A stretch of DNA of 64,000 bases from Bilabrum cf. latius (taxonomy: Eukaryota): NCBI GenBank assembly GCA_965178125.1, contig OZ237753.1, positions 744,001-808,000 of the forward strand. Direction: 5' to 3'. Within the stretch, counting starts at the first letter, position 1. The number at the start of each line of letters is the position of its first letter. A program made the translations under genes and the position numbers. This document shows, one piece after another, positions 11,321 to 40,710 of the stretch. The notes below the pieces were generated by a model, which saw only the letters and a program-made list of their open reading frames with translations, was not told where the DNA came from and made no database searches.

Positions 11321-14300
11321 TTAACGTCCTTGCTAGTACCTCGCCCACTCGCTCCTGCACATGGGACACTTGTTGTCACCTGAGCTCTGGAACCAGCGGA
11401 GCACGCACGCCCCATGGAAGCCCTTCCTGCATGTCCCGCACTGCTCCGTGGGCAATCGCATCGAGCCTAAGCTGATCACGCTGTAGCAGATTGGGCACGG
11501 TTCCGCCCCGGAGAGCTCCTGGTCAAGGTTCTTCTTCCACAGTGCCACCGCGTCAGCGAACGTCCCGTCTCGATTCGTCAGCAGCGCCATGAGCTGCATC
11601 CTCCATCGCTGCCACTGGGACTTGCCCAGCCCGCACTGGAAGTGCACCTTGGGCTTGTCAAGGGGGTAGGCCGGCGGGACCTCAATGGTGGCCTTTAGCG
11701 CCACTTCGTCCTGTATGTACTGCGCCACTACTTCCCCGGTCTCGCGGTGTACCTTGACTGAGAAATCGTCCAGTTCCCAGTCGTTCTCCTCTGCCGCCGC
11801 CTTGAGGGCGACTTCCTGCCCCGCCAAGATTCGGGGCTGCACGTCGATCTTAACGTGCTGGCGCAGCTGTTGCGTCCTCTGTTTGCCTAAGCTGCGCGCC
11901 CAGCTGGATGATTTGGCTGGGAAACCTTCCAGTACTGTGTGCAGCAGCTCACCCGCCAGCCCGCGCACGCTCCAGGGATGCGGGCCCATGGAGGCTCGGG
12001 CTAGAGTCGGATGCAGGTCACTGCCGGGATGCGCATCGCACGGGGCAGCTAGGGATACCGCCATCTGCTCACCGGCACCAATATCGGTGGGGCTGCCGTC
12101 CTCGTGAGCAAGAGACAAAGTACAAGAAGGCAAGTCGCGACCTAGCGTAATCGCACCCTTACCAGTCTGCAGCCCGGCGCATGCAGCATCCGCGAACGAG
12201 TCTGCAACTTCATCGATCAGTTCGAAGCCACTGTGACTGCCACCCAAACGAACCCCGCCGTCGTCCAAGCTCGACACAGTCTGGGCGCCGAGCCACAGGG
12301 ACAGGCTCCTCATGGCATCATCGCGGGCGATGCGCAGGTCCCTGAGGCCCTCAGCGTCGCTCGGAGAGGACGATCCGTCAGGATTCACATCGTTAGTTTC
12401 ATCCGGACTGCATGCGACAGGAGGAGTAGCAATGCCGGGGCCGAGGACGCCCTGCAGGCCTGCGCTGGCGAGCGCCCTGTCTCGCCTATTCGACGGCGGA
12501 ATCTTCGTGCTTCCAATGGTCCATGGCCTGCTTTGGAGGGCGCGACGGCGGGTGCTTGGGCCGTCCGAGGTGCTCTATCCTGGGTCGGGGCTAGAGTCAA
12601 GCGGAGCCTCTGCACCTATCAGAGCACTCTGATGGGTCAGGTCAAGATCGACGTCAGACCGCCGTGCATCCAGCACGTCGATCCCATTCGACAAAGGAAT
12701 GCCCGGAAGGTTCAAGTCCACCCCAGACGGAAGTCCAACCGCAGTGGCTACCCTAAGGACGTGCGATGCCATGCAAGCATCTGCCACCGCGTCCCCGCCG
12801 GCGAATTTCCACTCGTCCACAGCACCGCTCCTGACCTGGATCCCGGCAGCTGCCTTGCCAGCCTTTGTCGCCGACATGCGAACAGATGCCTGCCTTCGAT
12901 TCGCAGTCTGGGCACACGTGCACACAAATGATAGCAAGTTCTACAGCTGGGCCGGCGTGTGCTCGATCCCTGCGGAAGCCTTAGTCCATAGCAACGTTGC
13001 AATGCGTGCCTACTGCGCAGGTGACAGGGAGCCGGAGAGTGCGCTCTTCACTAGGATGAGCCAGATGATGAGCGATCGGCGCTCAAGGCACGGGCGGGGC
13101 AGGCGATCAAGCGCATGCAGGATGCATGGACCGGCCACATCGAGGACCCGCCTCGCCGCGCCCTTGCCTCCGAAGCAGGCCGATCGCATCGCTGCGCGAC
13201 CGGCCTCGCTCGTGCTGCCCACGCTATCGCCGCATACGTCGATCCCGCTGCTCTCCCCTCGAAGCATAGGGGATCCCTATCCAAGCGAGGCGACTCCATC
13301 TTCTCCAGGAACCCCCTCCTCGCTGAAATCAATCGCATCACCCTCTTGCATCGCGGCCAACATCCCCTCCCGCATCTTCCGGGCGTCCTCGTCCTCGTCC
13401 TCTTCTTCGTCAGCTTTCGTATCCTCGTCATCTACAGAGTCGTCGCTATCCGCCGCGGCAGCGGGAGCCTACGGCACAGATTCTTCGGGCGCACTCGCTC
13501 CAGCCCCACTGGATGGTCCCGCACCTGCCGTTGGAGGTGAGTTGCTTGCGCCGTGCGCACGGCGATGCTCGCGAACAGTCCGCCCCGCGGACCGCAGGCT
13601 AGAGCCAGCCTACTCGTCATGCTCACCAAGCAAATCAAAGGAGATCCACTCGCGTAGTCCTAATGGCCATGTAGATCCACCACTGCTGCCTGCCGCGGCG
13701 CCAGCAGCCAGCTGCTTGCCTCCCTTCAGCTCGCGCTCGATCGCACCTAGAAGCACCTTGCCGCGGCCCAGCATTCCCGCAATGCGAGCCTCACGCACCC
13801 AGTCACCTGCAGCGAGGAGCCCGAGCGCCCCGGCCAACAATGCCAAGCACTGCTTGGGATTAAATCCTCGGGCCAGTAGCACGCACTCCTTGCCGTGTTC
13901 AGTTTCCCATGCCAGCGACTGCGACGCCCAAAGCACGTCCACTGCACGTGATGCGAGGAGACTCGCAGCGGCATGCACCGTCCACTGCTCGTCTGCGGTC
14001 GGCGACGTATCCCTTACGCTAGCCAATGCCAGACTCGAGCCAGGCAGGCCCGTTGAATCGCTACGCATCATACCCATTGCAACGACAACGGCACTAGCAG
14101 ACGCTGTGGCATTGGACGCGGACTCCCTTGCTTGGTCATATGCGCCTGAGCTGGCAAGCAGTCCAGCCAGCGTGTCGCAGGCAGCGATTGCCGCCATTGA
14201 TGCTTCCACAGGCCCTTCAGACTGGACGATCCGGATCAAATCACTGTCCAGCTGCCTGCGCAATGCCCGAGGCTACGGGTCCGCCGCGCGACGAGACTGC

Positions 14301-17300
14301 ACGGCACTCGGACGGAAGTGTATCCTCGATAGATGGAGTAGCGCAGTGGTCCCCACAGTGCCTTGCCCCATGCCCAAACCATCACTACGATCCACCGCGC
14401 CAGGCGCGCTTGGCACACCAGATCTAAGCCCAACCTCTTCAATGGCACCGTCAAGCCTGGCTACGGTCGATGGTGGAAGCGAGCCACGAATGCAAGAGAT
14501 GGGCAGCAGCTGAGTGATCTCTTCAATACTTGCCCTATAGGCTGTACTTGCCCCATCAGAGGCTTGCGGCTCGGAGATGCCAGCGGCACTGATCCCGCTC
14601 CCTGGAGTTGATGCAACGACTCCAGCACCAGCGGCACTGTCATCCTCATCCTCCCCAGCGATGCCAAACCCCGAGCTGACCGCACCGCTGTGGGCGCTGC
14701 TTGTACTAGTGGTCGTTGTTGTATCGCCTGAGCCCAATAACTTCAGCGCTCTGAGAGAATAGCCGCTGCCCACTGCCACAGCAGCCTCGAGCTGTGAGAG
14801 AACGCCGGCTGCAAGAATCCTGTGCCCAAGCACGTCGCAGCACAGTCCAGTTGAAGCACAAGCAGCGATGGCATCCAAGGGATCGACTGGTCCATCCGTC
14901 TTCGGCTGTATACTGTTCATGATCTCTAATAGAATGGGCTTCGGCGCGCCTGCAGCGGTGATAGTTGGGGACGTTGACACAAGCCCTGTCCGAACAGCCC
15001 CCAGCACGCTCAGTGCATCACTCCCATCCGCCTACACCTTGACATCTGTCGATGGAACGCCTTCGACCTGAAGCCGAATTGCAGAAACGAGTCTCACCGC
15101 ATTCTGAAAGCCAAACAGCGCGGATAAGGTGGCAATGACGCGAGCTTGCCCCTCAGGAGCAGAGCCCGGCGAAACATCCACAGCCAACCGAGCTGCACAG
15201 TCGCGCACTGACGCCAGCAGTAGCGCAACTCTCAGCCCCTCATCTCCTTGCAAGAATGAAACAACGTTACTGTCTGCATGCTCGAGCTGTTCCTTTGCCA
15301 CAATCGGCTCCCAAGCAACCAGCAGCCGCCTTGAAACTGCTGGTGAGATAAACATGCGACCGTCTGCCCCGCCATCTGCAGTTTGAAACAGGTTCAACCT
15401 GCTGAGAGCTTGAGATGCCTCACAAGGGCTCTTGCTCAGCATACACACGGCCAGCAGCTGCACCATCAGACGACGGATTCCAACGGAGCTGAGCTCGGAT
15501 TGGCACTTCGTGGCAATCGCGCTCAGGAGGTGCTCCACTGCTGCAGCCCGGATCTCTGCCGTGGAAACGACCGCCTCAAGCACCTCATCTGCCGCACGGT
15601 GCCCTCCTCCACCGACAGCATGCTCAACCCTTGCAACTGCAGCCTCCAGAAGGTCCTGCGGCACTCGACTGCCAGGGCCAGCGAGCCGGAGCTGCTCGGA
15701 CAGCATTGCAGAGAGCCTCGATACAGTAGGATTCAGATCAATGGCAGCAGCTCCGTCACCTGAGAGCCGGTCTTCTAGCGAAGCATGCGTCTTCAGTGCC
15801 AACCACCTAGCTAGTGACGCGCCCGCGTCCTGTTGACTCATTTTAAATGACTCCTGCAACTAAGCCCAAAGAGTACCCGGCGACGCCTCGCCTAGTCCGT
15901 CAAGTACGTTCCACAATTCATGTGCTTGGTCTCGCTTCGACAAGCTGGCATCAGCAAACAGGACCCGCCCGCACGCAGCTACAACGGTTTCTTTCAGTTG
16001 GCTCACGGCATCTCTGCAAGCGGCCTCCCAGCCATCGCCCAACTGGCCGAGTGCTGCCCCTACGTGACGCAAGGCAGTCGGCGACTTGCCCAGCAAAATA
16101 TCGTGCAGTTGCTGTAGGAAGCCCTGAGCAGCTTCACGCAGATCCCCACTGGCACGTTCTGGCTGCTCCTCAGACTGATCGCTTGGCAGCAAGTCCAGCG
16201 AAAGCGGCAGAGCAAGGGTGTCGCCTGTGGCGATAGCAGTACCGTTCATTGCAATAAAATGCAGACAAGACTGGGCGGCATCACTCGCACCAACACGATG
16301 ACTTGAAGCAGCTCCTCGCTCTCTAGAGGCTTCCGCAGCAGATACAGTTGCTGCATCGCTCGCCGGTGACGGTGACGGCACCCCGCCGAGCGCCTGGTGG
16401 AGAGAGCTCCAGCACAAGCTGTGGGTCCGTTGCGACGAGCTGAGCTCATGCAAAAGCGAGGAAGCATCGTTATTTCCTGCTAAAGCCCCTTGAGCAACCA
16501 CCAAACCGGCTTGTTGCAGAGTCTGTGGCAGGCAGGCAGCTATCCCCAGTGGGTAGTCCAGGAGACGTGCGATCTGTTGACTCCCACCGGCCCCAGGTGA
16601 ACCTGACACCCCCCGAGCCAACTCAGCGTCCACGTCACCAAGTAGGTCGGCCACAATTCCGGCACTTCTGTCCGGAGACTTGCTCCTCCGTGCCTCGACC
16701 ACACCTCGCAGCCGGCCCATGCACGCCCCCAGCGCTGTAGCCGCAGGTACTGATGGCATCAGGCTGGCCTATGCATCCCCGGCAATCACAACAACATCGT
16801 CTGCGTTGCGATCAACCCCAGTCCCAGCGGAAGTTGCCAGTTTCATGCACACACCCCGCACTGCCTCAAGGAAAATTCTATCTGGCGAGCCGTCCGGTCC
16901 AGCCTCCGCCTTGGTCGCGAGAGACACCAGGATCGCAAGACACCTGCCGGCGGTGGCATGCTCGTCCTTCCCAAGAGCTGCAGCTTCGATGCACCGCACG
17001 CACATGTCGAGTGCGAGCAGCGCAGGGCACCCCGCACCTTTACTCTTCTTTCCCTTCCCTTTCCCCTTCTTCTTGCCTCCCTTGGACTGCGACAGCCCCC
17101 CAGCGGAAGCGGCACTTGCTCCGTCCGCCCCATCGCTGGACACTATCCCTTGCAGCAGCAGCTCTCGCGGAACGTTCGTCAGTGCAACCTCGATCGCAGG
17201 AGCCAAGCGGCCGAGTGCACCTCCACGGGCCGAAAGCCTGGCTGCACCGCCCAATGCCAGCCCCAGCGACTGTTCCCTGGCCATGCTCGCCCACACTTCA

Positions 17301-18589
17301 GCGACCGCAGGCACACCATCACGTACATCCTCGTCAGTCGTGCCACTCTCGGCAGTGCTGCTGCTGCTGCTTCTTGCAGCCCCGCCACCAGCCGCTTGTG
17401 GTCCGCCCTCTCCCTCCCCAGCCGCAGGAGAAGCACCCCTTCCCGCCCCACTGGCAGTCTTGATCCCACTACGACTGACGCCATCAATGGCACATGCAGC
17501 TGCAGGCGACTGGGCCAGGGCACGGAAGAGCCTCGCGACCGTGTCCCAAGCGGTTGCAACCTCGCTGGGGGAGTCGTTCAGCTGCAGGGAGGCGAGGGTA
17601 CAGCTAGCCAGGGGGCGGATGCACTGCATGGCGGTGCGGGGATGTCCCACCAGTAGTGCACTAGCGAGGTGCCTAGCAGCCTGCCGCAGCGGACCGTGGT
17701 GGGACTAGTGCATGTGCTTCAGTACTTCGCCGTCATCCAGGCACATGGCCAGCGCGGCAGCGATTGGTTGCTTCTGCTAGCCCTTCTTTCTCCTCTTGCC
17801 GCTCCCTTTCGCAGAGCCGGCAGCCCCGCCCTTTTCTCCTGCAGGAATCGACCCACCTGCCTCTGCTCTCTGCTCGGATGACGCAGAGTCTTCCAGTGGC
17901 AGCACGTGCTCGACAACCCACGAGAGGGACCGCACGGCGGCAAGTCTAGCTCGCTGGCAGGATTCCTCGGCGTCCTGCTCTCCGAGGGCAAGGCGCTCCT
18001 GCAAAACATCAAGAGACACCACTGCAGTATCTCGGAGCTTTTGAATGCAGCGTTTAGCAATTTTACCTAGAATGCGCGCTGCTTTGGTGGATGGCAGCAG
18101 GGCTTCAGTGAGTTGCTGCGCATTGACGTGTACGTCGCGGTCGCCATCTTGTGCCAGAAGCAGCGCAGCTGGGACTAAATCACCGGCAAATTCACCCACA
18201 ACAGATTTTGAGCGATTCACTAGAGCAAGAAATGCGGCAGACACAGCCCGGCGAACTCTGGTGTCGGGATAGTAGGCCAATGAAGGGCAGTGGTACGCCC
18301 ATACAGCTGCAATGTCTCGCAAAGAACCCTTTGGCTTCTCCGCAAATGACACCGACAAATCTGAAAGGGCTTTGACCTTTGTCGTTGCGCTCTTCTTGTT
18401 CAACCGTTTCAATATTTGCGCTACCTCAGCGTCGTTCCCGGTGTACACTGGCGCCGCACCGCCCTTCTTGGCTCCCGGCTGCGCCGCACCTGCCACTGAC
18501 CCGGCAGAGAACTGATCTGCAAACGCATCGAAGCCAACAAAAAGTCCAGGCCCAGAAGAGGCACCAGAGGCGCTTGGTTTGCCGCTCAT
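11321..18589 (-). CDS. LTN1: E3 ubiquitin ligase listerin (Ltn1/Rkr1), ~2,420 aa
   Basis: N-terminal 'FVGF...ILKRLNKKSATTKVKAL', RWD-like 'IEVPPAYPL', C-terminal RING 'CPICYSVI...CGTCRKGFHGACVLRWFQSSGDNKCPMCR'. Single frame with 13 in-frame TAGs (17777, 17705, 16769, 15860, 15032, 14273, 13610, 13469, 13277, 13010, 12941, 12575, 11333), ending TAA at 11321. An upstream exon is possible (TTGCAG just 5' of the ATG). Confidence 0.9.
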
Positions 18590-18789: not shown

Positions 18790-20955
18790 TCAGCGACCCC
18801 CGCTAGGCTGGGGCTGGGGCTGGGGCTGGGGCGGCAGGACGAATCGAAACCTCGTGCTCAGAAACTTGCGAAGCTCTCGGTCGTACTGTTCCGCCGAAGC
18901 TTCCACCTGATCCTCTGCTTCAGACACTGCCGGAAGGGCGTTCCCTTCCCCAGCGCCCTGCATCCCTCCAGTTCCCTCTGCTTGCCCTCGTCCCTGCTCG
19001 TCCCCGCCTGGCTGCGCAGAGCCTGCAGAGTCTGGCCCCTCTTCCCCTGCCGAATCACCGCCCTGCTGCCGCGCCCCATCGCCATGAAGCTGCTCCTGCG
19101 CACCCGCTCCTTCCACTCTACCCCCCTATGTCTGAGATCCACTCGTCACACTCCACGCGGCGGGTCCGGCCGGCCCCTCCAGTCTCAGATCCCACCGCTT
19201 CCAGTCGTAGATGGGCCCGTGCAGCTCCGGCGACCATTGCGCCAACACTTGACCCACGTCCGAGAGGGCCAGCACTCCGATGGGCTGTCCCGAGGAAGGC
19301 TCCACGATGGGAAGGTGCCTGAATCCCGACCGGAGCATCTTTCTGGCGCACCGCTCCACCGTCCAGTCCGCCTTGCCAGAGTACACCCGGGTGGTCATGG
19401 CGTCCACCAGGGGCCGCCGAGACACGGTGTCACACAGAGCTCCAGGTGGTTTATGTGTTCCCTGTGCGGCTTCGTCTGAGTCAGTGGAGGACGAGCAGCC
19501 AGTGCCAGCGCCAGCGCCAGTGCCAGTCCTGCTGCAGCTACTGCTGCTCGTCGAAACAAACGAGGATGATGTTTGCTCCCCCCCATCCCGCCGCACCCCA
19601 TTCTTGGCACTGCTCGCCGAACGTTCCTTGAGCAGCAGCCGCGCCGCGTCGATCCCTGTAAACATGCCCTCCTACCTCCCATCTGCCCCCAGCACCACCA
19701 CAGCCGACACGTCCCTCTTCTTCATCTCAGAGACGGCACCACCGACGGTGACACCGTCCTCCACGTGCGCATTGACCAGCACATCCTGCCCCTGGTCCCG
19801 CAGCATCGCCATCAGCTCTAGAGCCGTTGACTTGGGGGTCAGCTGGGGCCGCACGGGCCGCCTCTCTTCCGCCCGACCTCTCTTCGAGTCCCACGTGCCC
19901 AGCCACTGCAGCCCGAACCACGACGAAGACGGAGAGGAAGAAGTGGAGGAAGTGGAGCGGTGCCCGCTGGCAGGCCCCGACTCGGAATCGGAACCGGACG
20001 CGCTCAGAGAGCTGTGGTGCTCCGCGATGGCCCTGGCGATCTCGGCCTCGTCCTCCCCCGACCTCGGCCTACTTGTTCCCTGGTCCCGCTTGGGCAGCAG
20101 CGAGAATCGGATGAGGTCGCGCATGGAGAGAATGCCCACCACCGGGGCTGCGTCCCCTTGTTCCCCGGTGACGTCAGCCACGACATTCTGCCACGACTAG
20201 TCCCCTCCACCCAAGCTGCCTTGCTCGGCCCCCGCCAGCACCTGGGCGAGCACCGCCTCGAAGGAGTCCGGAGCATCCGATGAAAATGCACCCTCGGTAA
20301 CGAGGCTCTGGGTGTCGGTGAGTGCCCCGATGTGATCCAGGGCAAGAGATGCGTCGTTGTCGGCGACATCAGCTGAGGATCGCATGATGCTCTCCGGCGC
20401 GTACACGCTACGGAGTGCGCCAGCATGGCTGGTACCGGGCACCACAATGGGAAGATGTCGAATACCAGACACCAGCATGAATCGCAGGGCATCCAACACG
20501 ATTGCGTCCGGAGTTGCAGTGGCGACGCCTCGTCCCAGTTGCTTCACGTCACTCACAGTGCTGGCTGTTCCTATCTCTGGAAACCGCAGCATGACATCCT
20601 TCTCAGTGAATATGTCTCGTACCTGCACTTCGTCTCGACCTGGAATGTGTTCCGTCACCAACAAGGAGCTCGCTTGCTGCAGGTTCATGTAGTGCAGGGC
20701 ATCGAGAACGGTACTGGATTTGTCGATGGATGGAATATGCAGATACGACGGCTCTCGCCGCGCACGCACGCGCAGCACATCCGCCAGCGATGCTAATATT
20801 AGTTGTTTGCTGGATGCGTACGATATGGGCTGCCTCGTCCCGGACAGGAGCCGCCGCTTTCCGGCGCATCCAATCACCGTTCTGGAGACCCGGAAACCCG
20901 ACGCCAAACTACGACCAAGGGTGCGGATCCTTCGAAGCTATATAAGTTGATTCAT
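18790..20955 (-). CDS. CBS-domain protein (two Bateman modules), probably mitochondrial, ~721 aa
   Basis: 'TVLDALHYM...IFTEKD', 'GIRHLPIV...GILSMRDLI', 'GFRHLPIV...IGVLALSDV'. Starts MNQLI*LRRIRTLGRSLASGFRVSR (Arg-rich presequence-like). TAGs at 20938, 20197, 19672, 19126; ends TGA. Confidence 0.8.
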
Positions 20956-21368
20956 ATTTTGATACACAGTGCCCTGAGAATAGGCATACTGCCTCGGTGA
21001 GAGCCAGTGGATTCTGCGGGGCATCCCGTGGATAGCGAACCAATACGAATGTTCGTCAATACGCTCCGCATGCCTGCGTGCAGCGTGCTTGCGCAGGTTC
21101 GAAGAAGCTAGTAGCACGATACGCTTTGACCTATTCGGAATTGGAACGCTATGGCGGCAGGTATGCCCACGCCGAGCCAGAGTGCGAAAATTGGTGGGGA
21201 CAGCAGCACCAGCGACGACAATGAACATTTTCCTAGCAACACGACTAGCCAGCAGGTCCGTCCTGCAGGCAAGCCGAGACAAACAACAATTCGAAGCACC
21301 AGCAAAGCGCCCCCCCCCCCCCCCTTTCAACAGGTGAAAAGGGCAACCCCTAGGTCCTCCGCATGGGG

Positions 21369-21817
21369 TCAAATCATGATGCTGTCCTCATCGGCAGTCT
21401 TCACGGCCGTTGACTTGGTGTCCACAGAATCTACCGGAGAATGATCCAAATCCGGGGCATTGCGTGACACTCGCACCTTCCTAGTGTTGACGGTGCGGTT
21501 CCTTCTCTCTGGCTCTGGCCCCTCGAGAGCGGCCCTGATCTCGTATCGCCGCTACATCTCGAGCTTGTCCCCCTTCTCATTCATGCACATCTTCACGATG
21601 CAGCCTCCGCAGCAGCACACCACTAGCACGGAGCAAAGTATTATCACCAGCACGATGGTACTCTGCGCGCGATACCAGTGGATCGGTCAATGCATCGAGA
21701 GGCAGTGTGCAGGCAAAACAACGAATCCAACTCCGCGGCCGGGAAACTCTGTTTGCTCACGGGAGCACCACCCTCAGACTCAGGACATGTCGTACAATTG
21801 GTACCATTTACATCCAT
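21369..21817 (-). CDS. Small single-pass membrane protein, ~116 aa, 2 exons (21817-21761, 21662-21369)
   Basis: MDVNGTNCTTCPESEGGAP|STIVLVIILCSVLVVCCCGGCIVKMC...LEM*RRYEIR...SIMI-TGA. N-glycosylation sequons, hydrophobic TM segment, Cys cluster, GTGAGC...GCGCAG intron in phase 0, one TAG at 21552. Confidence 0.65.
21663..21760 (-). other. Spliceosomal intron (98 nt)
   Basis: GTGAGC donor, GCGCAG acceptor; joins two exons in frame. Confidence 0.6.
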
Positions 21818-22473
21818 TAATCGCACCAGCCGGCACAGATATCTGCTAGTAGGCGCAAGCGGGCGGCAAGAACATGTCAAATAGGCTGCGGTAGCTTGGC
21901 ACCAAACTCAATGCGTAGCCAACGACGGAAACGATGGAGGCAGGGAAGGTATTTTCATTAGTATTTGTTCTTGTTATTAGTACCAAAATGCATTTCAATC
22001 AGCCTTACGAGCCGCAATCAGTGTCGGTTTCCCTTCGGGTCGCACTGCTCGGCTTGGTCGCAGCGGTTGCAACCTCTTTTTTCTGAGGCGAACCGTATAG
22101 AGTCGTATTCGCGCACTGTAGGACAAGCTGGCCGATCAATCTTTCTAGCAAAATCAGATTATAATGGTAAGTATTTTTGTAATTGCATCGAAGGTCACTA
22201 GTATTCCTATTATGTCTTCATTATGAGCTCTTGGTCCTTCCACGTTGGTGGAGCAAGAGCAGCTGTGTGTGTGCTGGGCAGCGGTGTAGACATGCTCGGT
22301 CAAACCCCACCTGTATGGTGTCTTTTATTCTCTTCTGTTTATGTGCTGGATCGTATTTCTACGATTGAACTATGTCTAGGTGTATTTTGTGTGTCAGCTC
22401 CCCGTACGTGTGTCTTCCGGCGCAGCCCGGGAAAGAGAGCGACAAGAAGCCGCGAAGCAAGAAGGGATCGGCC

Positions 22474-22722: not shown

Positions 22723-22805
22723 TTGCTGATCTCACATTTGAGAATTATGCCTGCAGTGCTTCAACTTTGCATCTCATAGGCATGCTAAACATGATCGTTT
22801 GCAGG

Positions 22806-28610: not shown

Positions 28611-28885
28611 AGCCTCAAATCCTCCAGAGTGGTCCGGCTTCGGGAGATACCCTCAGACAATTGGCCAATCAATTAAATTCTAGCTGGTTTCTGCGACTCG
28701 TCCAGAAGCAAATAGTGGGACGAATCTTCAATTTACAACAAATTGAGCTGGTTGCCACTGTATCGCGATAAATGCCGGTCAGTCGGGGCAAACATGTTTT
28801 CTTTGGTGGGAGCGGTTGCAACGGCTGGGACCAAAAGGCACACCTTACAAATCACCTGCGGCAACTCGGCAGAAAATCAGGAGCC
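28611..28885. promoter_or_regulatory. Putative bidirectional promoter between myosin and WW-R3H genes
   Basis: 275-bp AT-richer spacer between head-to-head starts; ATTGG/CCAAT motifs at ~28660-28670. Positional inference only. Confidence 0.4.
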
Positions 28886-29752
28886 ATGGGGTGGACAAGG
28901 CAAGTTTCGAAGAGGAGCGGCAAGATCTATTATTTTAATACAGATACTGGAGAGTCAACCTATTCAAAGCCACCTTCGTGCGAAGAGAAGCAGGTATCGA
29001 AGCCGCCTACGCTTCCGAAGACGAAATCCGCAGCTTCGCCAGCTCTTTTGACTCGGTAGAGCTCCAGCGCGACTGCAGCAAGTGGTTTGAGCTCAAAATA
29101 GCCTGTTCTCCCTCAACAGAACCAAAAACCACCTGGAAAAGGCGTCTTCTCATCGCTGCTGGCTAAAGTGAAGAAGTAGGCTGCTCGGCCGGGGGTCGAC
29201 GGGTCCAGCAGTTAGTTGTCCTCGATCGAACTTGATAAAAAGCGGCGTCTCGAGGAGCAGGAGCGAGGCAAGAAGGTGGTTCGAGACTGGCGCGACAAGG
29301 CAAAGGCTGTGTGCGACGACCTGCTCAGCAGCGACTCTCGCACGTTCCACCGTTTCACCGGGGAGCACGTTACCCTCGATCTGATCCGGTTGGTCATTCA
29401 CGACGCTGCTGAATCGGCAGGTCTTATGTGCTAGAGCGTCGGGGAAGGGGACGAGCGTGTCGTGCTCGTTTTCAAAGCCGAGCACCCTCCTCCAGAAATC
29501 GTGGAAGCGGAGGCGGAAGAAGCCAGAGAGCAAGCCGCTCTGGAATCTCACGTGAAGGCACAAGCGGCTGCCATGGCGGAGGCAGCTAAGAACCGAACAC
29601 CTGCTCCGAGGGCCCAGAAGAAGGGAGCACCGCCGGACCCCAGCGAGAGGAGGCTGGTGGGCGGGATGAAGCGGGACAGGCGATCTGTGGCTGAAATACA
29701 GGCAGAGCTGGCGGCGGAACAAAAGCGCAGGCGAGTGGATGGAGTCGAGTGA
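28886..29752 (+). CDS. WW domain + R3H (SPAG7-like) protein, ~288 aa
   Basis: 'MGWTRQVSKRSGKIYYFNTDTGESTYSKP' (WW); 'RLVIHDAAESAGLMC*SVGEGDERVVLVFKAEHPP' and 'KRDRRSVAEIQAE' resemble SPAG7. TAGs at 29057, 29099, 29177, 29213, 29432; ends TGA. Confidence 0.8.
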
Positions 29753-30018
29753 ACTAAGTGTCCACTCCTCGCAAGCGACCGACAGGTGGGAGAATCGCGG
29801 GGGGGGTGCAGTTTGCGAGAGTGACAGGGTGGGTCTGCGCCCGTTTTTCTGTTTTGCGCATTGCTGGTTGTAAGTTAGAAAGCAGTGTTAGCCCAAGGTT
29901 AGATGGATTCGTGCGCCGATGCGATTGCCTCGTCGCTCTACATTGGTCGCAACTCGCACACCACACCCCGAGCTGTCCAAGCGTCAAGCCCACAAGCGGG
30001 TTTGGGCCACGGGCCAGC

Positions 30019-33000
30019 ATGGCGTTTTCGGGCGATAGCCCTTCGGAAACAAGTTCCAATTTGACAGAATATGCCAAAGAAGTCACTAAAAGGTAGCAGG
30101 CACTGCTAAACTTGTTGACGGCGCAGCAGCTCGTGCTGCGATTGGGTGCGACAGGCAATCCAGGAGACTTTGGGGGGCCTGCAGCCCTGATTGACTCGGC
30201 AGTGGCCGTTATTGGATGCGATAGAATAACTATGTTTGTGGTAGACCGAGTTCGAGGCCGTGTGGTCGCTGCATTGGCGAATGAGCAGGAATTGGAGGTG
30301 AGGTCGGAACCGCATGAACGTCCTGTTCCAGTACTCTGCGTCTGTGCTCCCTGTTCTGACGGCACTGCTTATGAATACGGTGTGGTTGCTCCTGCCGCGG
30401 CGGCAATTTTGCATTCTGTCGAGACTCCGCATCGGTGCTGCCCAACCGTTTCCTTCGAGAGCGCAGGGAGGTTCTCTTGCGGTAGGCAAGGGATTTGCTG
30501 GGCATGTTGCCCAAACTGGAGAGCCAATTCGTGTTGATGATGCCACGAATGATCCCCGGCTAGTTTTGGACTTTGAGCGCAGTGCAGCCAGCAGGACGCG
30601 CAGCCTCCTAGCCGTTCCTGTCAAGGATCGAAGAGGTGCAGTCGTAGCAGTACTTGAAGCCATCAACAAGCACTCATTTTCGCCTTCTTAGATATGTGCT
30701 TTTACATCGTTTGATGAGTATGTGCTGCGGTGTTTTTCAGTCTTTCTGGGAGAGGTGAGCGCATTCCGAAGTGTAACTCACACATGCGAGTCTGAAGCGC
30801 AGTCGACTCGACGCACCTGAACCATCCCCCCCTGTATATTTCGCAGTCAATGCACCGTTTAGGCTTGTACGAAGATGCTGCTAGGGCAAGTGCGGTCAAT
30901 GCTGCCCTGGTGAGAGCAACCAAGCGTCTCGCACAGGAAGTCGAAGTCTCTAGGGTCGTTGAGACGCTTGTCCGTGCGCTCAGGAGGCTAACTAGGGCAA
31001 CCCGAGTCAACGTTTACCTGGTCGATGCTGATTCAGAGATGATCCACCTGATAGATCCCGGTCTGACGACGCCGCGACGACATGTGCCCGGTTTGTTCGA
31101 CGCCGGCACGTTCGGTGCTTCCACCGCCGACGGCACCGGGGAGGACGTGCACGACATTCACCAAGGAGGGGTGTCCGATTACTACGCACATTCGTTGGGC
31201 CATATCGAGGACGACGGAAGCGAAGGAAACGACGGCTTCGATTCGGACGACTCTGGCTTCGGGGAGGTGACCGGCAAGCTCTCACCCGGCCTGGGGCTGG
31301 GCCGCAGCCTGGGCGGTTCTGGGGGCAAAGGCACCTCGGGCGACGAGCAAGACAGCAAGCTGCGGGCCAGAGATCTGTCCGACAGCACTGGCCTGGCCGA
31401 TGCCGGTGCCGATGCGTCGGATTCGCGGGAGGCCCCGCCCACCGCGAGGAGGCAGCACTCCTCCTCTGCCCCAGTCACTCCAACGCCTGTCTCGGATGCA
31501 GATGTTGCCCGCCCGGGCCGCTCCCGCAGAAAACCGCCCCCAGGTGCTCTTTCCTTGCCCCTAGATCGAGTCCGCGGCATCTCCTCGGGGGCCTCCTCCT
31601 CCAACCAGTCCTCTTCGTCCTCCATGGGGACAGGGAGGGGCGTGCTGGAGGTGGACCCAGACGCGGTGTACTCGCCTACGGTGCCACCGAGCAGCATGAC
31701 AATGCACGGAGGGCAGAGGCTCTGGAGCGATCACTCGTCACACCTAGAGGATCCCCAGAGGCGGCACTCTGCGCAGGTGGGCAGGGCGGGGGGGGCGGGG
31801 GGGGCTGCGGGGGGTCCGCTTGGCCTCTCTGGCAGCAGGGGGCTGGTGCGCCGGCAGACCGAGCAGCCCGGTGCTATGCGAGCCAATGCCAAGGGAACAG
31901 CCACTGTCCACGGGCACAGAGAGAATGCGAGTGCGCATCCGGGCCAGCCCGCGAGCGGCAGCGCGAGCTCCAGCACCACCGTGGCTGGGGGCGGAGGCCG
32001 CATGTTTCCGGCTCTGCCCAACAGGGCGGTACCACTGGCTCGCTTCAACTCCACCCCCCTGCCCACCATCTCAAGCCAGGCCACCAACGTGGGCGGGTCC
32101 GAGTCGGATGCGCACGGCGCGGGAGCTGAGGTGCGGGAGGATGAGACGGGAGCGGAGGGGACGTTGCAGTGCCTCGCGACATTCTCCATCCACAGGGGCA
32201 TCGTGGGGCGGGTGGCGCTGACGGGTGAAACCGTGGTGGTGCTGGATGCATCCGCCCACCCTGACTTCGATGCGGCTGTGGACGAGGCGCTCCTGGACCC
32301 CCTCCCTGCTGAGAAGCTGGAGCTGTCGTCTGGGCCGGCCGTGCAGGGCCAGAGGCACGGGGTGGTGGCAGACAGAGTCGGCATGCTGCGCAGCGGGATG
32401 CACGCTTCAGACTCAACGCCAGCCCTTGTGGAGCTAGGGCACCCTTCCGGGTCCCCTCTCTCCCCCGGGGAGCAGCCTGGAGGCGAGGCATCCCCGCGGC
32501 GATCCACGGTGGCGGGAGGCAGGGGGCCAAGAGGAAGGCAGGATGCCCTGCTGGGTGCCACGGAGAGACCCGCGCGCAGGAAGCAGTCGGCGGGGGCGTT
32601 GTTCCCTGGCGGCGGCACGGGCGCGCATGGAACGGAGCAGAGGGGCGAAGCAGACGGGGGCGGTGGCGCGCAGCAGCACAGTCAGGAGCAGGGTGCGCAG
32701 CCTCAGTCGCCCCTCGTGGGTGCCATGCAGCCCCCGCCCGAAGCCGAGGTTGCCAAGCTTACAAATCTTGGGCCCACTGCCGACGCGGCCGGCTGGGCCG
32801 ATGCAAATGCATCGCACGGTCGTGCTAGGGTGCGTTCGGCTGATCAGGAGCAGGCGATTCACTCCTTCACCCTGGCGGAGGAGTGGAGCGGGGGACGGGC
32901 GGGAGCCGACCAAGCCAGGGGCGTGTCACGGCGGGTGACTTCCAGGCTCTCCAGGGTGCAGAGCGCGGTGGTGGCACCCGTGTGCGACGCGGATGGGCGC

Positions 33001-36000
33001 ATTCTGGCCGTGGTGCAGGTGCTGAACAAGAGGACCGAGTCGGCACAGCAGGACTCGAGGGCTACCCTGCTGTCGGCGACGCACGGTCAGCTCTCGGTGG
33101 TGAAGAACTGCTCGGGCGGTTCCACGGCGCGGCAGGTGATCCAGGCCGCGCTGGATGCGGGCGGGACTACATCGGCCTCTGTTGGGGCAGACGTGGTGGC
33201 AGGCGCGGCGGGCGCAGGAGGGCATGCTGGTGACATCCCTCGGCCGCCGGAGCTGCCGCTGCCTTGGGGCGGCACTTTGGGCGCATCCCCGTCGCTTCTG
33301 CACGCGCTGGGACAGGTAGGAGGAGGCGCTGGTTCTAGCTCTGCAGGCCTGCTGTCCGGTGCCGGTGAGACTCCTGCAGGTTTCGGGGCTGGGAGCGGCG
33401 GGGCCCAGGGCTCCTCCTCCTTCTTCTTCAGTACAGCGCCGCTGTCGGCATCAGCTGGCAGTCCTGCTGGGGCGGTCGACGATGCGGTGCCTGGTCCGCG
33501 CAACGGCCCCTTCGTCTCGGCAGGTCTAGAGTCAGGTATGCGGTCCAAGCGGGCGCTCGGGCTCGCGCGCAAGGCCTCTCGGCAGGTGAGGTCTGAGCGA
33601 GCGCGGGAGATTCAGGTCACGCACACGGCTTCGCTTTCGCCGAGGCCCTCTGGGAAGGGGTTCGGGGCCTGGGTCGATGACGAGGACGAGGACGGGAATG
33701 GGAATGGGAATGGGAGGGGTGGTAGAAGGCGCGGCAGGACCAGCAGCAAGAGCTCCTTGCGGAAAGAGGTGGGTCTTGCTCCGTCTGGGGAGGCAGGGAA
33801 GGCAACAACCGGGGCTGCTGGCGCCGGGTAGGCCTAGGCCAGCGGGCAGGACAGCGGCAGCGACGGTCGGGGCGGCTCGCGAGACTCGGTGGCTCTGCCC
33901 TCTGTCGCAGTCGCTGGCCCCTCGCAGCCCGTGGCCCCGCCCGCAATCCGCGGTAACCACCGCCTGCAGCTCCCGTCCACGGTCGTGGAAGAGACAGGCA
34001 CGACGGACGGGAGGACGGCATCACCCTCGCAGCACTCGGTGGACTCGTCCGCATCCCCAAAGTTCGAGAGCCCCGGCATGCTCCCGGACAGGGGGCACAC
34101 CCTGTCTGGCGACTCGGGCAGCGGCCGGGGGAGCGCGCTCGTGGTTGGCATATCCGGCTCGCAGGGTACCAGGAGCGGCAGTGACGAGGACAGGTAGGTG
34201 GGTGCTGCCACGGGCCCTTTGCCCAGCAGCGCAGCATCCTCCCCCACGCGCGCCGCACCGACTGATGAGAGCCCCCAATCACTTGGAGATGACCTGCACT
34301 CCAGGAACAACGGCGCTGACGTTGACCTTACAGCTACCCCGATCGCCTCGGGAAGCACCGAATCGGACAAGCAGGACGCGGCAGCCGACCCGCCTGCAGC
34401 GCCTGTACAGTCCGCAGCGGGCGAAGCCACGGCGCTGCCTGCCCCGCCTGCCACAATCGGCTAGGTACACCGCTCCACCAGCGCACCGGAAGACCGCCCC
34501 AGCCCTCTGGACACCTCCCGCGAGTCGGACTGGAAGGCCTCGCCCTGGCGCAAGGGGAGCGGCTCGAGCGGCGGTGGGCAGCGAGGGAGGGGCAGGCTGT
34601 CCTCCATCGACGCGGAGGCCTTCGTGCCATTCTCAGCCACCGATGTTGGCGTGGTGGAGAGCATTGCGGCGTCAGCTGGCGTGTGCCTTCACAAGGCGCT
34701 TCTGTTCGGAGACCTGAGGAGGGCCCAGCGAAAGACCGGCGCGCTGCTCGAGATGGTGCAGGCGACGGCCTCGAGCAAGGGGACCTTTGACGTGGTGGAA
34801 GGGATCCTGGAGAGCGTGTCCAGGGCTCTCCGTGCCGTGCGCGCGTCCCTCTTCCTCTTTGACGCGCCTGCTGGCGAGTTGCAGTGCCTGGTGTCCGACA
34901 CCGACCTCGAGGACGTGCGGGTGCCCACCCGCAGGGGGATCGCTGGGTAGGCCGTGCGTGAGGCGCGGGTGGTGCGCGTGGCCAGCTGCCAGCCCGGCGA
35001 CGTTGAGTCGTCTTCCTCCCTGGAACAGGTGCTCCGCCAGCAAACCGCTTTGTCGCCGGGGCGGCGCGCCTCCCAGCTGGGCCACCAGGCAGAGGACGGC
35101 GACGGCAGCGAGCTGGAGCCCGGGCGGTGGCACTTGCAGAGCGACGCGGCCACGCGGCTCGCATCGCTAGGCAGCGCCGACACGGTGGAGAGCGGTGTGG
35201 TGGCGGTGAGGGGCCTCCCCGTTGTGTGTGTCCCGGTTCTGGACCATCAGGGCCGCGTGCTGGGAGTGGTGGAAGTGGTGGGCAAGTGGCAGCCGGGCGG
35301 CCCCGCAGGCGGAAGCTCCTCCGAGAACCCCTTGGAGCTCTCGCCGGCGCCCGTGAGGCCCGGGTCTGGCAGTCCGATGCAGCCCAAGCCACCGCTGGAG
35401 CTCACCCCGGTTCATGGGCAGGGCCAGGCGGATCACTCCGCCTCCAGCTCGCCAGCTGAGAGCAGTCCTCACGGCTTGGGGAACCAGCAAGGCGAGGCCC
35501 AGAAGAACAGTGGCTCCGGGACAGGCGGCCGACCCCCGGCGCCGCCGCGGCCGGGCCTGACCGTGCGCGCTCCCACGTAGTAGAAGCTGCCACCTGTGGT
35601 TAGTCGCATGCACTCGCAGTCGGACGGGATCGGAGCGCCCGGCGTGGTGGTCGGTCAGATGACCCCCATTGACCGAGGGGAATCCTCCGGTTCTCTGCTC
35701 GTATCAGGGCCGTCCGTGGAGCTGGAAGGCGACACTCCCACCGCAGTCACACCAGCCACCAGGGATGAAGTTCCTTCACTGCCCGGCCAGGGCGGAAGCA
35801 CGCGGGCAGTTGTCACGCCGGCCCGCGCAGCAGCCCACCCCGGGCAGCCGCACTCCAGGCGGAGCAACGCGCGCAAGATGCGCACGTTGTCGTTTTATGT
35901 GGGTCGCGGGGGTATGTCTGGAGCCAGGTCAGCTGCTTCGGTCGCGTCCAGCGTCACTGGAATGGGCGGCGTGCACGAGGACCGCAGCACGGGCATAGAC

Positions 36001-39000
36001 GATTCGTCCTCGTTGGCGCATCGTGCCGGCCAGCTGCTCCACCGAGAGGGCAGCATGCACTCGATGGATGGTGAGGTGCCGGATGGCACTCCGGCACCCG
36101 AGTTGGAGGGCAGTTACGGCCCGGTGCAGCCGTTCCAGGAGCAGCACATGGACGTTTTGATCAGTAGCAGGGGCAGGGACGAGTTCGACGACGACGACGT
36201 CGACCTAGTGCAGGCCTGCGCCATCGAAATCTCGCACGCATTCCGAGACAAAAGCGTGGAGCTGCTTATGTACTCCGATGCGGAGAGGCGGCGGCAAGAC
36301 ACGAGGAACAAGGGGCGGACTGGAGGCAAGCCCTGGTTCAAGAGGCTGCCTTCGCACCGCAGCATCGCCAGCTCCCAGCACGGCTCGACCTCAAACTCTG
36401 GCTCAGTGCAGGACAGCCTGCAGTCACACGGGACGCCCCCCGGGTCGAGGAGCGGGCGGGCATCCCAGCAGCCGCTGAACCGAAAAGGCAGCAACCTCAG
36501 CTCCGTCCGAAGCGGCAGGGCCAGTGCGGCGAGGGGCAGCGCAGATGGGGCTGAGCTGGGAGCTGCTGCTGGGGGCGGCAGGGTGCAGGACAAGGCCAAA
36601 ATGCTTGAATCCGTGCTGGCTTTCTATTCGAGGGATGGAGGCGACTCGGGAGGCGGCACGGTGGATCAGCACAGGCAGCAGAGGAGGTCTCGAGACAGTA
36701 GCGCGGGCGGCCGCAGCCGTCGGCGTGATGAGGACCAGGACCGCGCCCGCTCTTCTCGTGGTGACCGCGATTCGAGCGGCAGGGGTGCAGGCGCAAACGA
36801 CGACACGGTGCGGAAAGGGCGAGGCTCCCCCGGAGGCACCACCACCTCATCGCTCGTGTCACAAAAGGGGCAGGGACAGGCGGGTGGGGACGCAGCAGGC
36901 GCGCCAGACGGCGGCACGGGCTCGCCGTCCGCCTCATCCCCCCGTCCAGCGGAGGGCTCCCGTGCCAGTGAGAAATCATCCTCCCGGCGCAGGCACTCAG
37001 CGAACTTTCATCGGGATTCGGCGGGCGGTATTGCCGGCACCAAGGCGGCGGTGCATGCGCTGGGGCCGAGGCGAGTGAGCGACCAGCAGCTGCTGGCGTC
37101 GGGGGCGGGGAGGGGCCGCGGCGTCGTGCCAACTCCGCTCGTGGGTGCCTCTGGTGTGCCGCCCTCCGGAATGCGCCCAACTGACGCGGCAGCACCGCAT
37201 GGCGCTCACCCGGGTCACGATGCGGTGGACGGCAACGTCGACGGGGAGGAAGCGCCGGGTGGTGCCAGGGTGCTGTCGCCCAGGGATTCGTCTGGCGGGC
37301 TGCCCAGCCACGAGGGCGGCGCCACTTTTGGTCGCAAATCGAGCGGGAGGTCCTTCGGGGACGGGACGCGGTCCGACCGGCTGTCGAGGGGCTCTCAAGA
37401 AGGCACCTCCGTGGGTGGCGGGTCCGTGGCGGAGACGGAGCTCGACTCGGAGTCGATGGGGCGGACGGGCCGCGGGTCGAGGGGCTCGGCGACAGGCAGC
37501 GCGAGCAGAGGCCCCTCTGGAGACAGGGCCGGCAGCGGCACGGCGTCTCCCAGGAAGGCGTCCAGTGTGACAAGCGATGACGTGCAGGCCCTGCGCGCCC
37601 GTATGGTCAGGGACGGCCTGCGCGTGGACCATTACGACATGGACGCGGTGCCTCCTTCCGAGCTGGACCTGCCAGGCACCGACGGGATGGGATGGGTTTG
37701 CGTGCCTGGAGACACGGCTGGCAGTGGCAGCGTGGCGGCAACGGGCACTGCCGCCGGAGCTGTCGGTGCAGCAGCGTGTGCGGTGCACGGTGACGAGGTG
37801 TCTGCTCTGGTCCTCCGCGGCGGGGCCTCCCTTGGATCCCCCGGGCACCCGATCGGCATGGAGCTCCCACCGCACGACGACTGGCGCTTTATGCCCTGGG
37901 ACATCCAGCCCCACCAAGCGGGCGGGATCGTGCTGGACCTGCTGACCACGTCGGCTGGCGTGTCATTCACCGCAAGAGAGGCGTGGCTCCCTGCGCAATC
38001 CGACAGCAAGGCGGCACGGCAGGAGCAGCTGGCCATCCTATCGGGCACAGACGCGAGCGAGTCGTCCGGGGACGAGAGGGCCGGGGGGTCACCATCACCC
38101 GGCGACGCGGCGCCAGAGGCAGCGGCGGCAGCGGGCGGCGCCCTCGTGCCGGCCTTCTTCCTTCACGGCCCCACGGTGCTCGCATTCGTGGAGGCGGTGC
38201 GGCGCAGGTACCGGCGGTGCGTCTTTCACTCGTTCGCGCATGGGCTGCACGTATGCCAAGCCTCAGGTCTGCTGCTGCGGGCCACCAACAGCGCCGAGGT
38301 GCTTAGCCCCATGGAGCGGGCAGCCACTCTCTTGTGTGCCCTGAGCCACGACGTGGACCACCCCGGCATCAACAACGCCTTCTTGCAGTCGATCGAGAGC
38401 CCCGTGGCAATGCGGTACAACGACATCAGCGTGCTTGAGAACCATCACACCGCCACGACGTTCGAGATCATCCGAGCGCCGGGCACGGACTGCCTTGGCG
38501 TGCTTGACCCAGCCGAGTTCCGGCGGTGCAGGGCGCTCATGGTGCGTGCCATCCTCGCGACAGACATGAGCGGGCATTTCGACATGACGAAGGAGCTCAA
38601 GGCGATGACGGGCCCCTTCGAGGCCGGCGGCACGGACAAGTCGAGGAACCGACTGGCAGAGGTCGTGGTGCATTCTGCCGACGTGAGCGGGCAGGTGCTC
38701 GAGTGGGACGTGGCGCAGCTGTGGTCGCGGCGGGTCATCACCGAGTTCCAGCAGCAGGCCGACATGGAGGCCGCCCGGGGGCTGGAGACGGCGCCTTTCA
38801 TGCAGGGCTTGGAGAAGGACTCGAGGCAGATGGGCCTGCAGAAGGGATTCTGCTCGTACGTGCTGACCGCGCTGTGGCAGCCGCTGAGCGACCTATACCC
38901 GTCGCTGGAGCCGCAGATGACGGAGTTGTCGCGCAACGCGGAGATGTACGCTAAGCTAGAGGCGGAAGCGAGGGCGGATGAGGAGGCAAAGGAGGCAATG

Positions 39001-39051
39001 GAAGCGGCGGGAGGTAGCGGCGAAGACGAGCCAGAGGCGGACGGCGAGTGA
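30019..39051 (+). CDS. GAF-domain class I cyclic-nucleotide phosphodiesterase, ~2,920 aa; exons 30019-30297, 30467-30754, 30847-39051
   Basis: Three GAF motif sets (e.g. 'CDRITMFVVD...GFAGHVAQTG...LLAVPV...EAINK...FTSFDE'). Catalytic 'FHSFAHG...HDVDHPGINN...VLENHH...ILATDM...HSADVS...EFQQQ'. Nine TAGs (30094, 30689, 33829, 33835, 34195, 34462, 34948, 35578, 35581); ends TGA. Confidence 0.9.
30298..30466 (+). other. Spliceosomal intron (169 nt) in PDE
   Basis: GTGAGG...GCGCAG; joins two halves of GAF-A that lie in different frames. Confidence 0.7.
30755..30846 (+). other. Spliceosomal intron (92 nt) in PDE
   Basis: GTGAGC...TCGCAG; the join gives the GAF helix FSVFLGE|SMHRLGLYE. Confidence 0.8.
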
Positions 39052-39255
39052 AGAAGCCAGACTGAGACGGTACTACCCGATGAATGCCCACCGCTGCTGG
39101 AATCAGGAACTGACTGACTGATGACAGAGACTGTTTGGATATGCATTGGCTCCTTCTGCCCGTCGGTGGCAGTAATTCGGAGCAACCTACAGGCCTAGGC
39201 CGGGGTAGACCTTGTGGCACAATCGCGTCGTTGTCCCAACCAACTTACGTTGCTC

Positions 39256-40710
39256 ATGCGATCCTCGTTTGCCATACGCGCTGCTCGGTAGGCGCGAGCG
39301 CTTGCATTCTCAAGGTGTCTCCGTAAGGTCCCAGCTACGCTGCCAGTGCCAAGATAGCTGAGCTCGCAAGCAGGACAAGCGCCCCAATTGAGTGAAGAGC
39401 AGCAAGCAAAAGCTGAGAAGCTCAGATCAGATATTCTATCAAAGCTAACGAAACGCGACGAGGAGCTGGATGGAATGTTCAGCGACAGCGCACAGGCTGC
39501 TGCGGGCTCCAGCGGGGAGCCGATCGATCCACACCACAGGTTTCTCGCGACGTACTACTCGCACCGACACACTGAATACGTACTTCCTGCGCTTCGAAGG
39601 TTTTACGCTGATCCTGTGACGGCCCAGTGGCCAGGCAGGCGTGCGATGCTAGTTGCCTTTACGGCCGAGGTTCTGCAGCGCTTCTCTGAGGTTGAGCTCG
39701 GTGATTTTTTCTTCAGGGCCATGTACAGCCATTCGGTGCCTCCGATTTACATGCTAGCGTCGCTTCGCCTTGCGGCGGCGTCGGGAGACACCGTGGCAGG
39801 CCGGAAGCCTGCGCCTGCCCAGGCTGGTGACGCAGGTGGGCCCGATGTCAGCAAAGCGAGCGGCGGGGGCGGGCTCCTGGACCACGCCCAGCGCCTCCAT
39901 AGCATGCTGCAGAAGGCCCCCGGCACGCCCGAGGAGGAAGCGGCCGTAGCGAACGCGAACGCGACGCCAGTCCACAAGCTGCTGGTGCCTCACGTCGACT
40001 CCGATCGGGATCAGTTCGCCAAGGAGGGCCGCGAGGGCGGGGGAGGGCTCGACGTGTTCCCCGTGCTGGCCCAGCTGCGCATGGCCAGCGGGCCCTTCGG
40101 GGCGAGCGCCGCCCCGCCCGCCGGTGCTGTCCGTGCCACCAGCGCGTACTGCCTGCAGGCCGGGCTGTGCGTCGTGGATGCTCACCTCGGGGCCTTCTAC
40201 GCGTCAGGAGATGCAGGCACGTTCATTGGATCGTTGCTTGAGGCTGCCCTTCCCTGGGGTGATGACCTGAGCGAGAGGGGCGTGACCCAGTGCCTGCCGC
40301 TGCTGCAGTCGCATGGCGTGCCTCTCCCCGGGGATGTGACGAGTGCGCTGGAGGGGGAGGACGTCGTGGCGGCAGAAAAGGCCATCCGGTTCGCGCTGGG
40401 AAGGTATGCGGCCCAGGCCCTGCTGTCGGTGGCCTCCCAGCACGAGAGCGCGGCCCGCGTGCTTCTCGGGCGTCTGGAGTCGCTCGCGCCTGCGATGGGT
40501 GGCGATGCGTGGCTTGGGACGGGGGGCGGGTCGCTGGAGGTGGACGAGAGGCGGGCGATGGAGCTGCTACCGGCCCTGGCGATGCTGCTCGCCAGGGGGC
40601 GTGTGTCCGGCCAGCGGCCGACAGAGGAAGTGACCGCGGGCCTTGGAGGGGCCAGGGACCGAGAAATTGGCGCGGCAGCGGCAGAGGCGGCTGCATCTGC
40701 TCGATAGTAA
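39256..40710 (+). CDS. Hypothetical protein, probable mitochondrial presequence, ~484 aa
   Basis: MRSSFAIRAAR*ARALAFSRCLRKVPATLPVPR*LSSQ... runs in frame into ORF 39388-40707; ends CGA TAG TAA. No family recognised. Confidence 0.7.

Follow-up and report, generated by a model that had tools for sequence, protein, structure and literature searches.

In genetic code table 6, both UAA and UAG encode glutamine and UGA is the sole stop codon; its users include many ciliates, Hexamita, the Dasycladales, Streblomastix and Amoeboaphelidium. The code in which UAG encodes glutamine while UAA and UGA remain stops is table 15 of the National Center for Biotechnology Information (NCBI). A genetic code 15 is named in PMC9523058, and reassignment of UAG alone to glutamine with UAA kept as a stop is listed for Iotanema spirale, Protocruzia tuzeti and two phyllopharyngean ciliate lineages in PMC11687900 (McGowan et al. 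2024). The subject here is a 64-kb stretch of contig OZ237753.1 (positions 744,001 to 808,000 of the forward strand; the window, numbered from its first letter), whose genes follow the same pattern. The best explanation, given a probability of about 0.85, is that the window is nuclear DNA of a flagellate, most likely a Cafeteria-related stramenopile, whose genome is GC-rich, compact and poor in introns; that UAG encodes glutamine in it while only UAA and UGA terminate translation (the NCBI table 15 pattern); and that this code is a trait of a clade. A first-pass annotation of this DNA had proposed that UAG is a sense codon uncoupled from UAA, which remains a stop, and this core reading is supported by codon counts and by the end of the LTN1 gene in a relative. 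The uncoupling holds here on both lines of evidence, but it is not unprecedented, as Iotanema and Protocruzia illustrate (PMC11687900).

The longest open reading frame (ORF) in the window under the standard code is 1319 amino acids. Reading TAG as a residue gives ORFs of 4178, 2876 (open-ended), 2733, 2422, 1564, 1050, 812, 714, 613 and 529 amino acids, which fill the window apart from spacers of 69-2691 bp; the four longest have coherent Pfam architectures. The breaking of genes under the standard code counts in favor of TAG as glutamine. The ORF content is clearly eukaryotic (LTN1, a class V-like myosin, a GAF-phosphodiesterase (PDE), Slu7, and a NEK6/7-like kinase with IFT57), and further ORFs encode CBS, WW-R3H, MIT, HAD, RAMP4 and nitroreductase proteins and two giant FG-GAP/cadherin surface proteins. 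Thirteen ORFs, each counted from its ATG, or from the edge of the window, up to the last codon ahead of the stop, comprise 18,516 codons with 78 in-frame TAGs (0.42% of codons), no TAA and no TGA. Another two TAGs are found in spliced 5' exons of the PDE gene that have RNA support, and 84 are counted when ORFs are taken from stop to stop; the ~82 internal TAGs reported at first pass are borne out by these numbers.

The end of LTN1 (listerin) is the most telling case of UAG and UAA near a C-terminus. The gene (11321..18589, minus strand) has 2422 codons, contains 13 in-frame TAGs and ends in TAA. Its product carries Pfam UBC_like (5e-21) and RING domains at residues 2277-2416 and matches listerin in the Protein Data Bank (PDB) with E 3e-33. 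When metagenome contigs were scanned with the C-terminus of LTN1, one relative came up, contig L001 (10.6 kb, 58% GC), whose LTN1 is 86% identical over the last 208 residues and 40% identical over the whole protein. Judged by its sequence, L001 is a clearly diverged organism using the same code, and a code shared with so diverged a relative is a trait of a clade. The window gene ends TGG GCG AGG TAC TAG CAA GGA CGT TAA directly after the UBC-like and RING C-terminus, exactly as the first-pass annotation had read it, and the L001 gene ends TGG GCC AGG TAT CAG CAA GGC CAT TGA. The window TAG located four codons before the stop (11333..11335, minus strand) corresponds to CAG in L001, the tail QQG[R/H] and the stop position are kept, and the window TAA (11321..11323, minus strand) is the codon-for-codon partner of the L001 TGA. 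From CAA to the stop, 9/12 bases are identical. Differences between the two genes over the last 627 nt number 33, 19 and 106 at codon positions 1, 2 and 3. Immediately before the stop, 149/180 positions are identical; immediately after it the figure is 96/180, from a gapped alignment and at about the level of chance. The CAG in L001 identifies the TAG at 11333 as a translated glutamine codon, and the alignment of TAA with TGA together with the loss of similarity after it identifies TAA as the terminator of LTN1. The claim that UAA is still a stop thus has this orthologous end behind it as well as the counts.

Contigs of three public runs from two studies (X5, X6 and X7) were mapped on 28001-48000 and provide gene borders. 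They contain five GT..AG joints (28440-28534, ~30298-30466, ~30755-30846, 46165-46263 and 46368-46530), none of which is present in X1, a DNA-like and near-identical set that covers the whole stretch. The myosin joint at 28440-28534 is found in three runs, and the PDE joints in three and two runs. X5-X7 were treated as complementary DNA because of the spliced joints, the contig borders at gene borders and the gene-by-gene differences in depth. The 3' untranslated regions (UTRs) appear very short: two contigs from the two studies stop at 42634/42635, ~10 nt past the TGA of the MIT gene, and PDE contigs end 39-94 nt past the stop. The transcription units in 28001-48000 are very compact, with 5 introns of 92-169 nt that are all near 5' ends and 5' UTRs of ~13-23 nt. 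PDE contigs extend as far as 39145, which lies in the spacer preceding the gene at 39256, and at 42760-42763 there is overlap between convergent contigs.

The second TAA end belongs to a gene without an assigned family (39256..40710, plus strand; no Pfam match) that ends CGA TAG TAA (40705-40710), in agreement with the first-pass annotation. The probable start at 39256 is supported by a contig spanning 39233-40630 and the start of the next gene at 40856 by contigs beginning at 40835, 40838 and 40843, so both starts proposed earlier are confirmed. Read-through of the TAA at 40708 would reach 40878, which is 43 nt inside the next transcript and beyond the next ATG; the overlap with the start at 40856 had been noted at first pass. 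Only two relatives of the protein were found in the database, P0121 (95% identical) and P0122 (59%); it is conserved and has an Arg-rich N-terminus resembling an organelle targeting peptide. P0121 ends ...SAR and is a standard-code prediction, hence it halts at any stop. P0122 ends ...GGRQ, which fits a terminal glutamine. The evidence for this TAA end is weaker than that for LTN1.

A gene end was considered supported if a Pfam family or a long ORF lies behind it. The supported ends are 11 TGA (CBS, HAD, RAMP4, myosin, WW-R3H, PDE, MIT, NEK-IFT57, cadherin/FG-GAP, Slu7 and nitroreductase), two TAA (LTN1 and the gene at 39256) and no TAG. Twelve TGA-ended genes had been claimed; 11 stand, and the twelfth is an unsupported small ORF (21369). 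TAG is needed as a stop at 0/13 supported ends and is contradicted in that role at LTN1; 13 genes leave room for rare or context-dependent TAG termination.

Codons with ambiguous stop and sense meanings are known from Condylostoma, Parduczia, the karyorelicts and, for UAA, Blastocrithidia. A context-dependent UAG in the window would be read as glutamine internally and would terminate near the mRNA 3' end, and each apparent TAA end would in fact be a TAG end with a back-up TAA behind it. Both TAA-ended genes have a TAG 1 or 4 codons upstream, which would also fit TAG as the terminator and TAA as the back-up. The apparent shortness of the 3' UTRs (~10 nt for MIT and 39-94 nt for the PDE contig ends) agrees with this explanation, and an LTN1 end at ...WARY would also be plausible because listerin ends 5 residues past the CP.CR motif in yeast and 3 past it in human. 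However, L001 LTN1 has CAG at the TAG position and ends at the same codon as the window TAA, with unalignable sequence downstream. For the gene at 39256, the relative P0122 has ...RQ as its end, and 0 of the 11 other supported ends use TAG. These comparisons make context-dependent termination unlikely.

A second possibility is table 6, with TAA rare through high GC. Third-position GC (GC3) is 0.72, TAA occurs least often overall among the three stop triplets, and only two TAA ends are visible. Codon ratios provide an expectation against which the absence of TAA can be judged. CAA:CAG is 136:560 in the thirteen ORFs. In a second tally CAA:CAG is 136:555, GAA:GAG is 194:752, AAA:AAG is 94:394 and TTA:TTG is 27:152, and the ratio of A-ending to G-ending codons is ~0.18-0.26 in all two-fold families. 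If TAA:TAG tracked CAA:CAG, 18.9 in-frame TAAs would be expected, and the probability of finding none is P(0) = 6e-9. Out of frame, TAA is common in the same DNA, occurring 26 and 58 times. L001 LTN1 has 20 TAGs and no TAA in 2,341 codons with CAA:CAG of 26:44, and ~12 TAAs would be expected by the authors' arithmetic. The zero internal TAA noted at first pass despite the use of CAA for glutamine is upheld, and no TAA occupies a conserved glutamine column in either the window (0/18,516) or L001 LTN1 (0/2,341). The window count has an element of circularity, since TAA served as a stop in calling the ORFs. When TGA alone is allowed to terminate, the long ORFs gain just 56-157 codons, in lower-GC spacers. 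Read-through of the two TAA ends would add 58 and 56 codons of lower-GC spacer and at 40710 would enter the next transcript, and the LTN1 TAA aligns with a TGA stop at which conservation ends. Table 6 is very improbable on these grounds.

The identity of the inserted amino acid was deduced from TAG codons in conserved contexts. The NEK6/7-like kinase is in frame with IFT57 (42786..46530, minus strand; 5' introns 46165-46263 and 46368-46530; Pfam Pkinase and IFT57) and has 7 in-frame TAGs. Its alignment contained 39 of 120 listed homologues, with 38 filled rows at the TAG columns. The column of the TAG at 45960 is Q in 38/38 rows and that of the TAG at 46026 is Q in 28/38. The Cafeteria roenbergensis NEK has Q at both columns in an identical context, AGDLKRQLRKARER...VVWK.F.Q, and human NEK7 shares the Q at one column and carries M at the second. 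Within the conserved C-terminal part of LTN1, a window TAG corresponds to CAG in L001, and L001 TAGs correspond to CAA and CAG in the window. Thus, five TAG sites in conserved contexts are informative (2 in NEK and 3 in LTN1), all five pair with glutamine or glutamine codons, and TAG is assigned to glutamine on this basis. From the weakly conserved sites, where TAG aligns with K, M, S, R, A and others, it could be proposed that UAG encodes Leu, Ser, Tyr, Glu or Lys, as other UAG reassignments do, or that it is decoded as several residues. No alternative recurs among them and the five strongly conserved sites are all glutamine, leaving this proposal with a very low probability. TAGs in the internal repeats of the FG-GAP and cadherin proteins are at variable repeat positions and uninformative. 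As a separate observation, L001 encodes a C2H2 zinc-finger array (7254-8738, minus strand; ends TGA) in which TAG recurs at the linker position SLRqHMR, a position occupied by R in other units of the array (LRRHVR).

The TAGs are present in the spliced contigs. Twenty-two in-frame TAGs lie inside listed X5 contigs with no letter difference, no indel and no joint at the sites. All 6/6 TAGs of the MIT gene are unchanged in contigs of all three runs, and 7/7 TAGs in the PDE main exon lie within two RNA-type contigs. Unchanged TAGs in spliced contigs rule out editing, introns and sequencing errors. The idea that there is no code change, with the TAGs being assembly errors, pseudogene lesions, introns or products of RNA editing, is refuted for practical purposes by the ~80 TAGs without TAA or TGA inside long ORFs with intact domains, by the identity of those 22 sites in RNA-type contigs of other runs, and by the same pattern in the diverged relative L001.

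The mechanism proposed at first pass, in which a tRNA with anticodon UUA would be absent, is reasonable and has two main components. A tRNA-Gln with anticodon CUA would decode UAG and could not pair with UAA. The release factor eRF1 would have lost or weakened recognition of a G at the third position and kept recognition of UAA and UGA. ARAGORN finds no tRNA genes in the window or in the L001 contig, and no Rfam families are found in the 64-kb window, which does not contain the eRF1 gene either.

Protein comparisons place the organism, most likely and provisionally, among the stramenopiles as a relative of Cafeteria. Six of the 8 top-ranked organism-named NEK matches are stramenopiles. A quick maximum-likelihood NEK tree of 40 rows groups the window protein and P0012, which is 86-90% identical to it, with Cafeteria roenbergensis (82% support by the Shimodaira-Hasegawa-like approximate likelihood ratio test, SH-aLRT), and this grouping sits within a mostly stramenopile group. 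The second-best match of the myosin head among 1.84 billion representatives is a Cafeteria roenbergensis myosin with 54% identity in one stretch over residues 1-832, and Pinguiococcus is within the top ten myosin-head clusters. A search of genome contigs with the myosin head gave only a 585-bp contig of a bacterial assembly at 40% identity, which is irrelevant. The window GC is 55-69% across the 64 kb and that of the genome is taken as 62%; high GC, tiny spacers and few, 5'-located introns also fit a Cafeteria-like genome. In the same tree, P0005, a NEK7 labeled 'Symbiodinium sp. KB8', is nearly identical to the Cafeteria roenbergensis protein, which suggests Cafeteria contamination in the Symbiodinium sp. 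KB8 assembly.

Several observations weigh against table 15 usage by a Cafeteria relative. Just two TAA ends are available and each has a TAG 1 or 4 codons upstream, an arrangement with a chance of ~1.7% per gene by the authors' estimate from the TAG frequency of 0.42% of codons. At the gene-39256 end, comparative support comes only from the 59%-identical relative ending ...RQ. Moderately conserved LTN1 sites pair TAG with TCG (Ser) and CGG (Arg) in L001, and the TAGs of Slu7, IFT57 and the nitroreductase fall on variable or unaligned columns of PDB alignments and are uninformative. The kinds of X5-X7 were only guessed by software, X5 is flagged 'probably DNA' and no run is recorded as RNA. The lineage is drawn from two genes, through a quick NEK tree and the best matches of myosin.

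Proceeding along the window, a giant FG-GAP repeat gene (2..8629, minus strand) leaves the window and has 12 in-frame TAGs and tandem repeats of 904 codons. Its integrin-alpha-like product consists of near-identical repeats with a period of 904 codons, and the TAGs recur at equal repeat positions. The CBS-domain gene (18790..21228, minus strand) has 4 in-frame TAGs and ends in TGA. The class V-like myosin gene (23770..28758, minus strand; Pfam Myosin_head 5e-223) has a 5' intron at 28440-28534 and 3 TAGs in the tail, and it ends in TGA. The WW-R3H gene (28772..29752, plus strand) has 5 in-frame TAGs and ends in TGA. The GAF-PDE gene (30006..39051, plus strand; Pfam PDEase_I 7e-61) has 5' introns at ~30298-30466 and ~30755-30846, 9 in-frame TAGs and a TGA end, and its spliced frame is open with a GAF-like N-terminus. 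The TAA-ended ORF at 29899-30663 (minus strand) is not considered a gene, since it lies antisense to 5' exons of PDE that have RNA support and it lacks a Pfam match. The MIT-domain gene (40856..42625, plus strand) has 6 in-frame TAGs and ends in TGA. The FG-GAP/cadherin surface protein gene (47279..59815, plus strand) has 4178 codons with 12 in-frame TAGs and ends in TGA. The Slu7 splicing factor gene (60357..62501, plus strand; Pfam Slu7 2e-52 and a PDB SLU7 match) has 4 in-frame TAGs and ends in TGA. The gene for a nitroreductase-domain protein (62687..64000, minus strand) has its 5' end beyond the window, 3 in-frame TAGs and a TGA end.

The NEK-IFT57 gene reads as one open frame of >1150 codons, and none of the three stop triplets separates its two parts. 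The linker of ~260 codons is low-complexity and rich in G/A/S/P, and an RNA-type contig at 42760-46164 spans it and continues over the introns. The predicted kinase of P0012 (90% identical) ends ~15 residues past the kinase domain. The IFT57 part, as a query with low-complexity words, has no match in the protein database at 1e-10. The fusion may be specific to the lineage, or the frame may be open by chance.

The spacers at 8630-11320 (2.7 kb) and 21229-22368 (~1.1 kb) have a lower GC of ~0.52-0.55 and no ORF with a Pfam match. Sense-strand runs of 8-15 G are located 14-47 nt 3' of three stops, at 59829-59839, 29799-29806 and 21310-21324, where they follow the cadherin gene, the WW-R3H gene and the small ORF 21369. 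The window has 13 runs of >=7 G/C, only three of which are so placed, and any function at the 3' end is speculative.

Few nuclear codes separate UAG from UAA, and every independent instance is a test of whether a CUA-anticodon tRNA eases the capture of UAG and whether eRF1 can be tuned to distinguish G from A at the third position. A GC-rich stramenopile with TGA as its main stop would, if the reading is true, widen both the taxonomic and the compositional range of such codes. There is also a practical consequence. Gene callers set to the standard code shred such genes, as seen in the database relatives P0012 and P0121, which start or stop at TAG positions, and metagenomic bins of the clade need table 15. 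The code itself is already known and is not a new principle; the window probably represents a new independent origin of it. No nuclear UAG reassignment in stramenopiles was found in the literature listings and abstracts searched. The odds are judged to be about even that the window represents a previously unreported, independent origin of UAG-only reassignment to glutamine, the first in stramenopiles, in a GC-rich clade of Cafeteria-related heterotrophs that uses TGA, rather than TAA, as its main stop and includes at least two diverged members.

Among described systems, organisms using table 6 share UAG as glutamine with the window, whereas they also read UAA as glutamine and the window has 0 in-frame TAA against ~19 expected. 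Protocruzia tuzeti and the phyllopharyngean lineages have the same codon table as the window according to PMC11687900, but they are ciliates. The closest named homologues of the window genes are stramenopile, not ciliate. The hallmarks expected of a ciliate macronucleus are not matched by this GC-rich, long, multi-gene DNA. The rhizarian exLh and Scotinosphaera keep UAA as a stop and so are uncoupled as here, with UAG assigned to a different amino acid, Leu and Ser, respectively, in the accounts of PMC5304391 and PMC11687900. Giant viruses with TAG as glutamine, described in the GVMAGs V2 catalogue (PMC13524828), have the same single reassignment in viral genomes. The window, by contrast, is cellular DNA: it has spliced introns and encodes Slu7, IFT57 and LTN1. 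The clade could be a candidate cellular host type for these viruses, as a lead and not as evidence.

The fornicate Iotanema spirale (Panek et al. 2017, PMC5304391) is described with UAG as the sole in-frame 'stop', encoding glutamine, and with UAA and UGA terminating, as here. UAGs near the 3' end were likewise judged to be sense codons in that account. Iotanema is a metamonad and the window is from an apparent stramenopile, an unrelated lineage. UAA is the dominant stop reported for Iotanema (PMC5304391), whereas TGA dominates here, 11 versus 2, at 62% GC. The Iotanema code was established from a transcriptome of hundreds of genes and eRF1 (T32G in the GTS motif; PMC5304391), and the present case is built on 13 genes. 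The tRNA-Gln(CUA) and altered eRF1 that would account for the window correspond to the mechanism proposed for Iotanema (PMC5304391).

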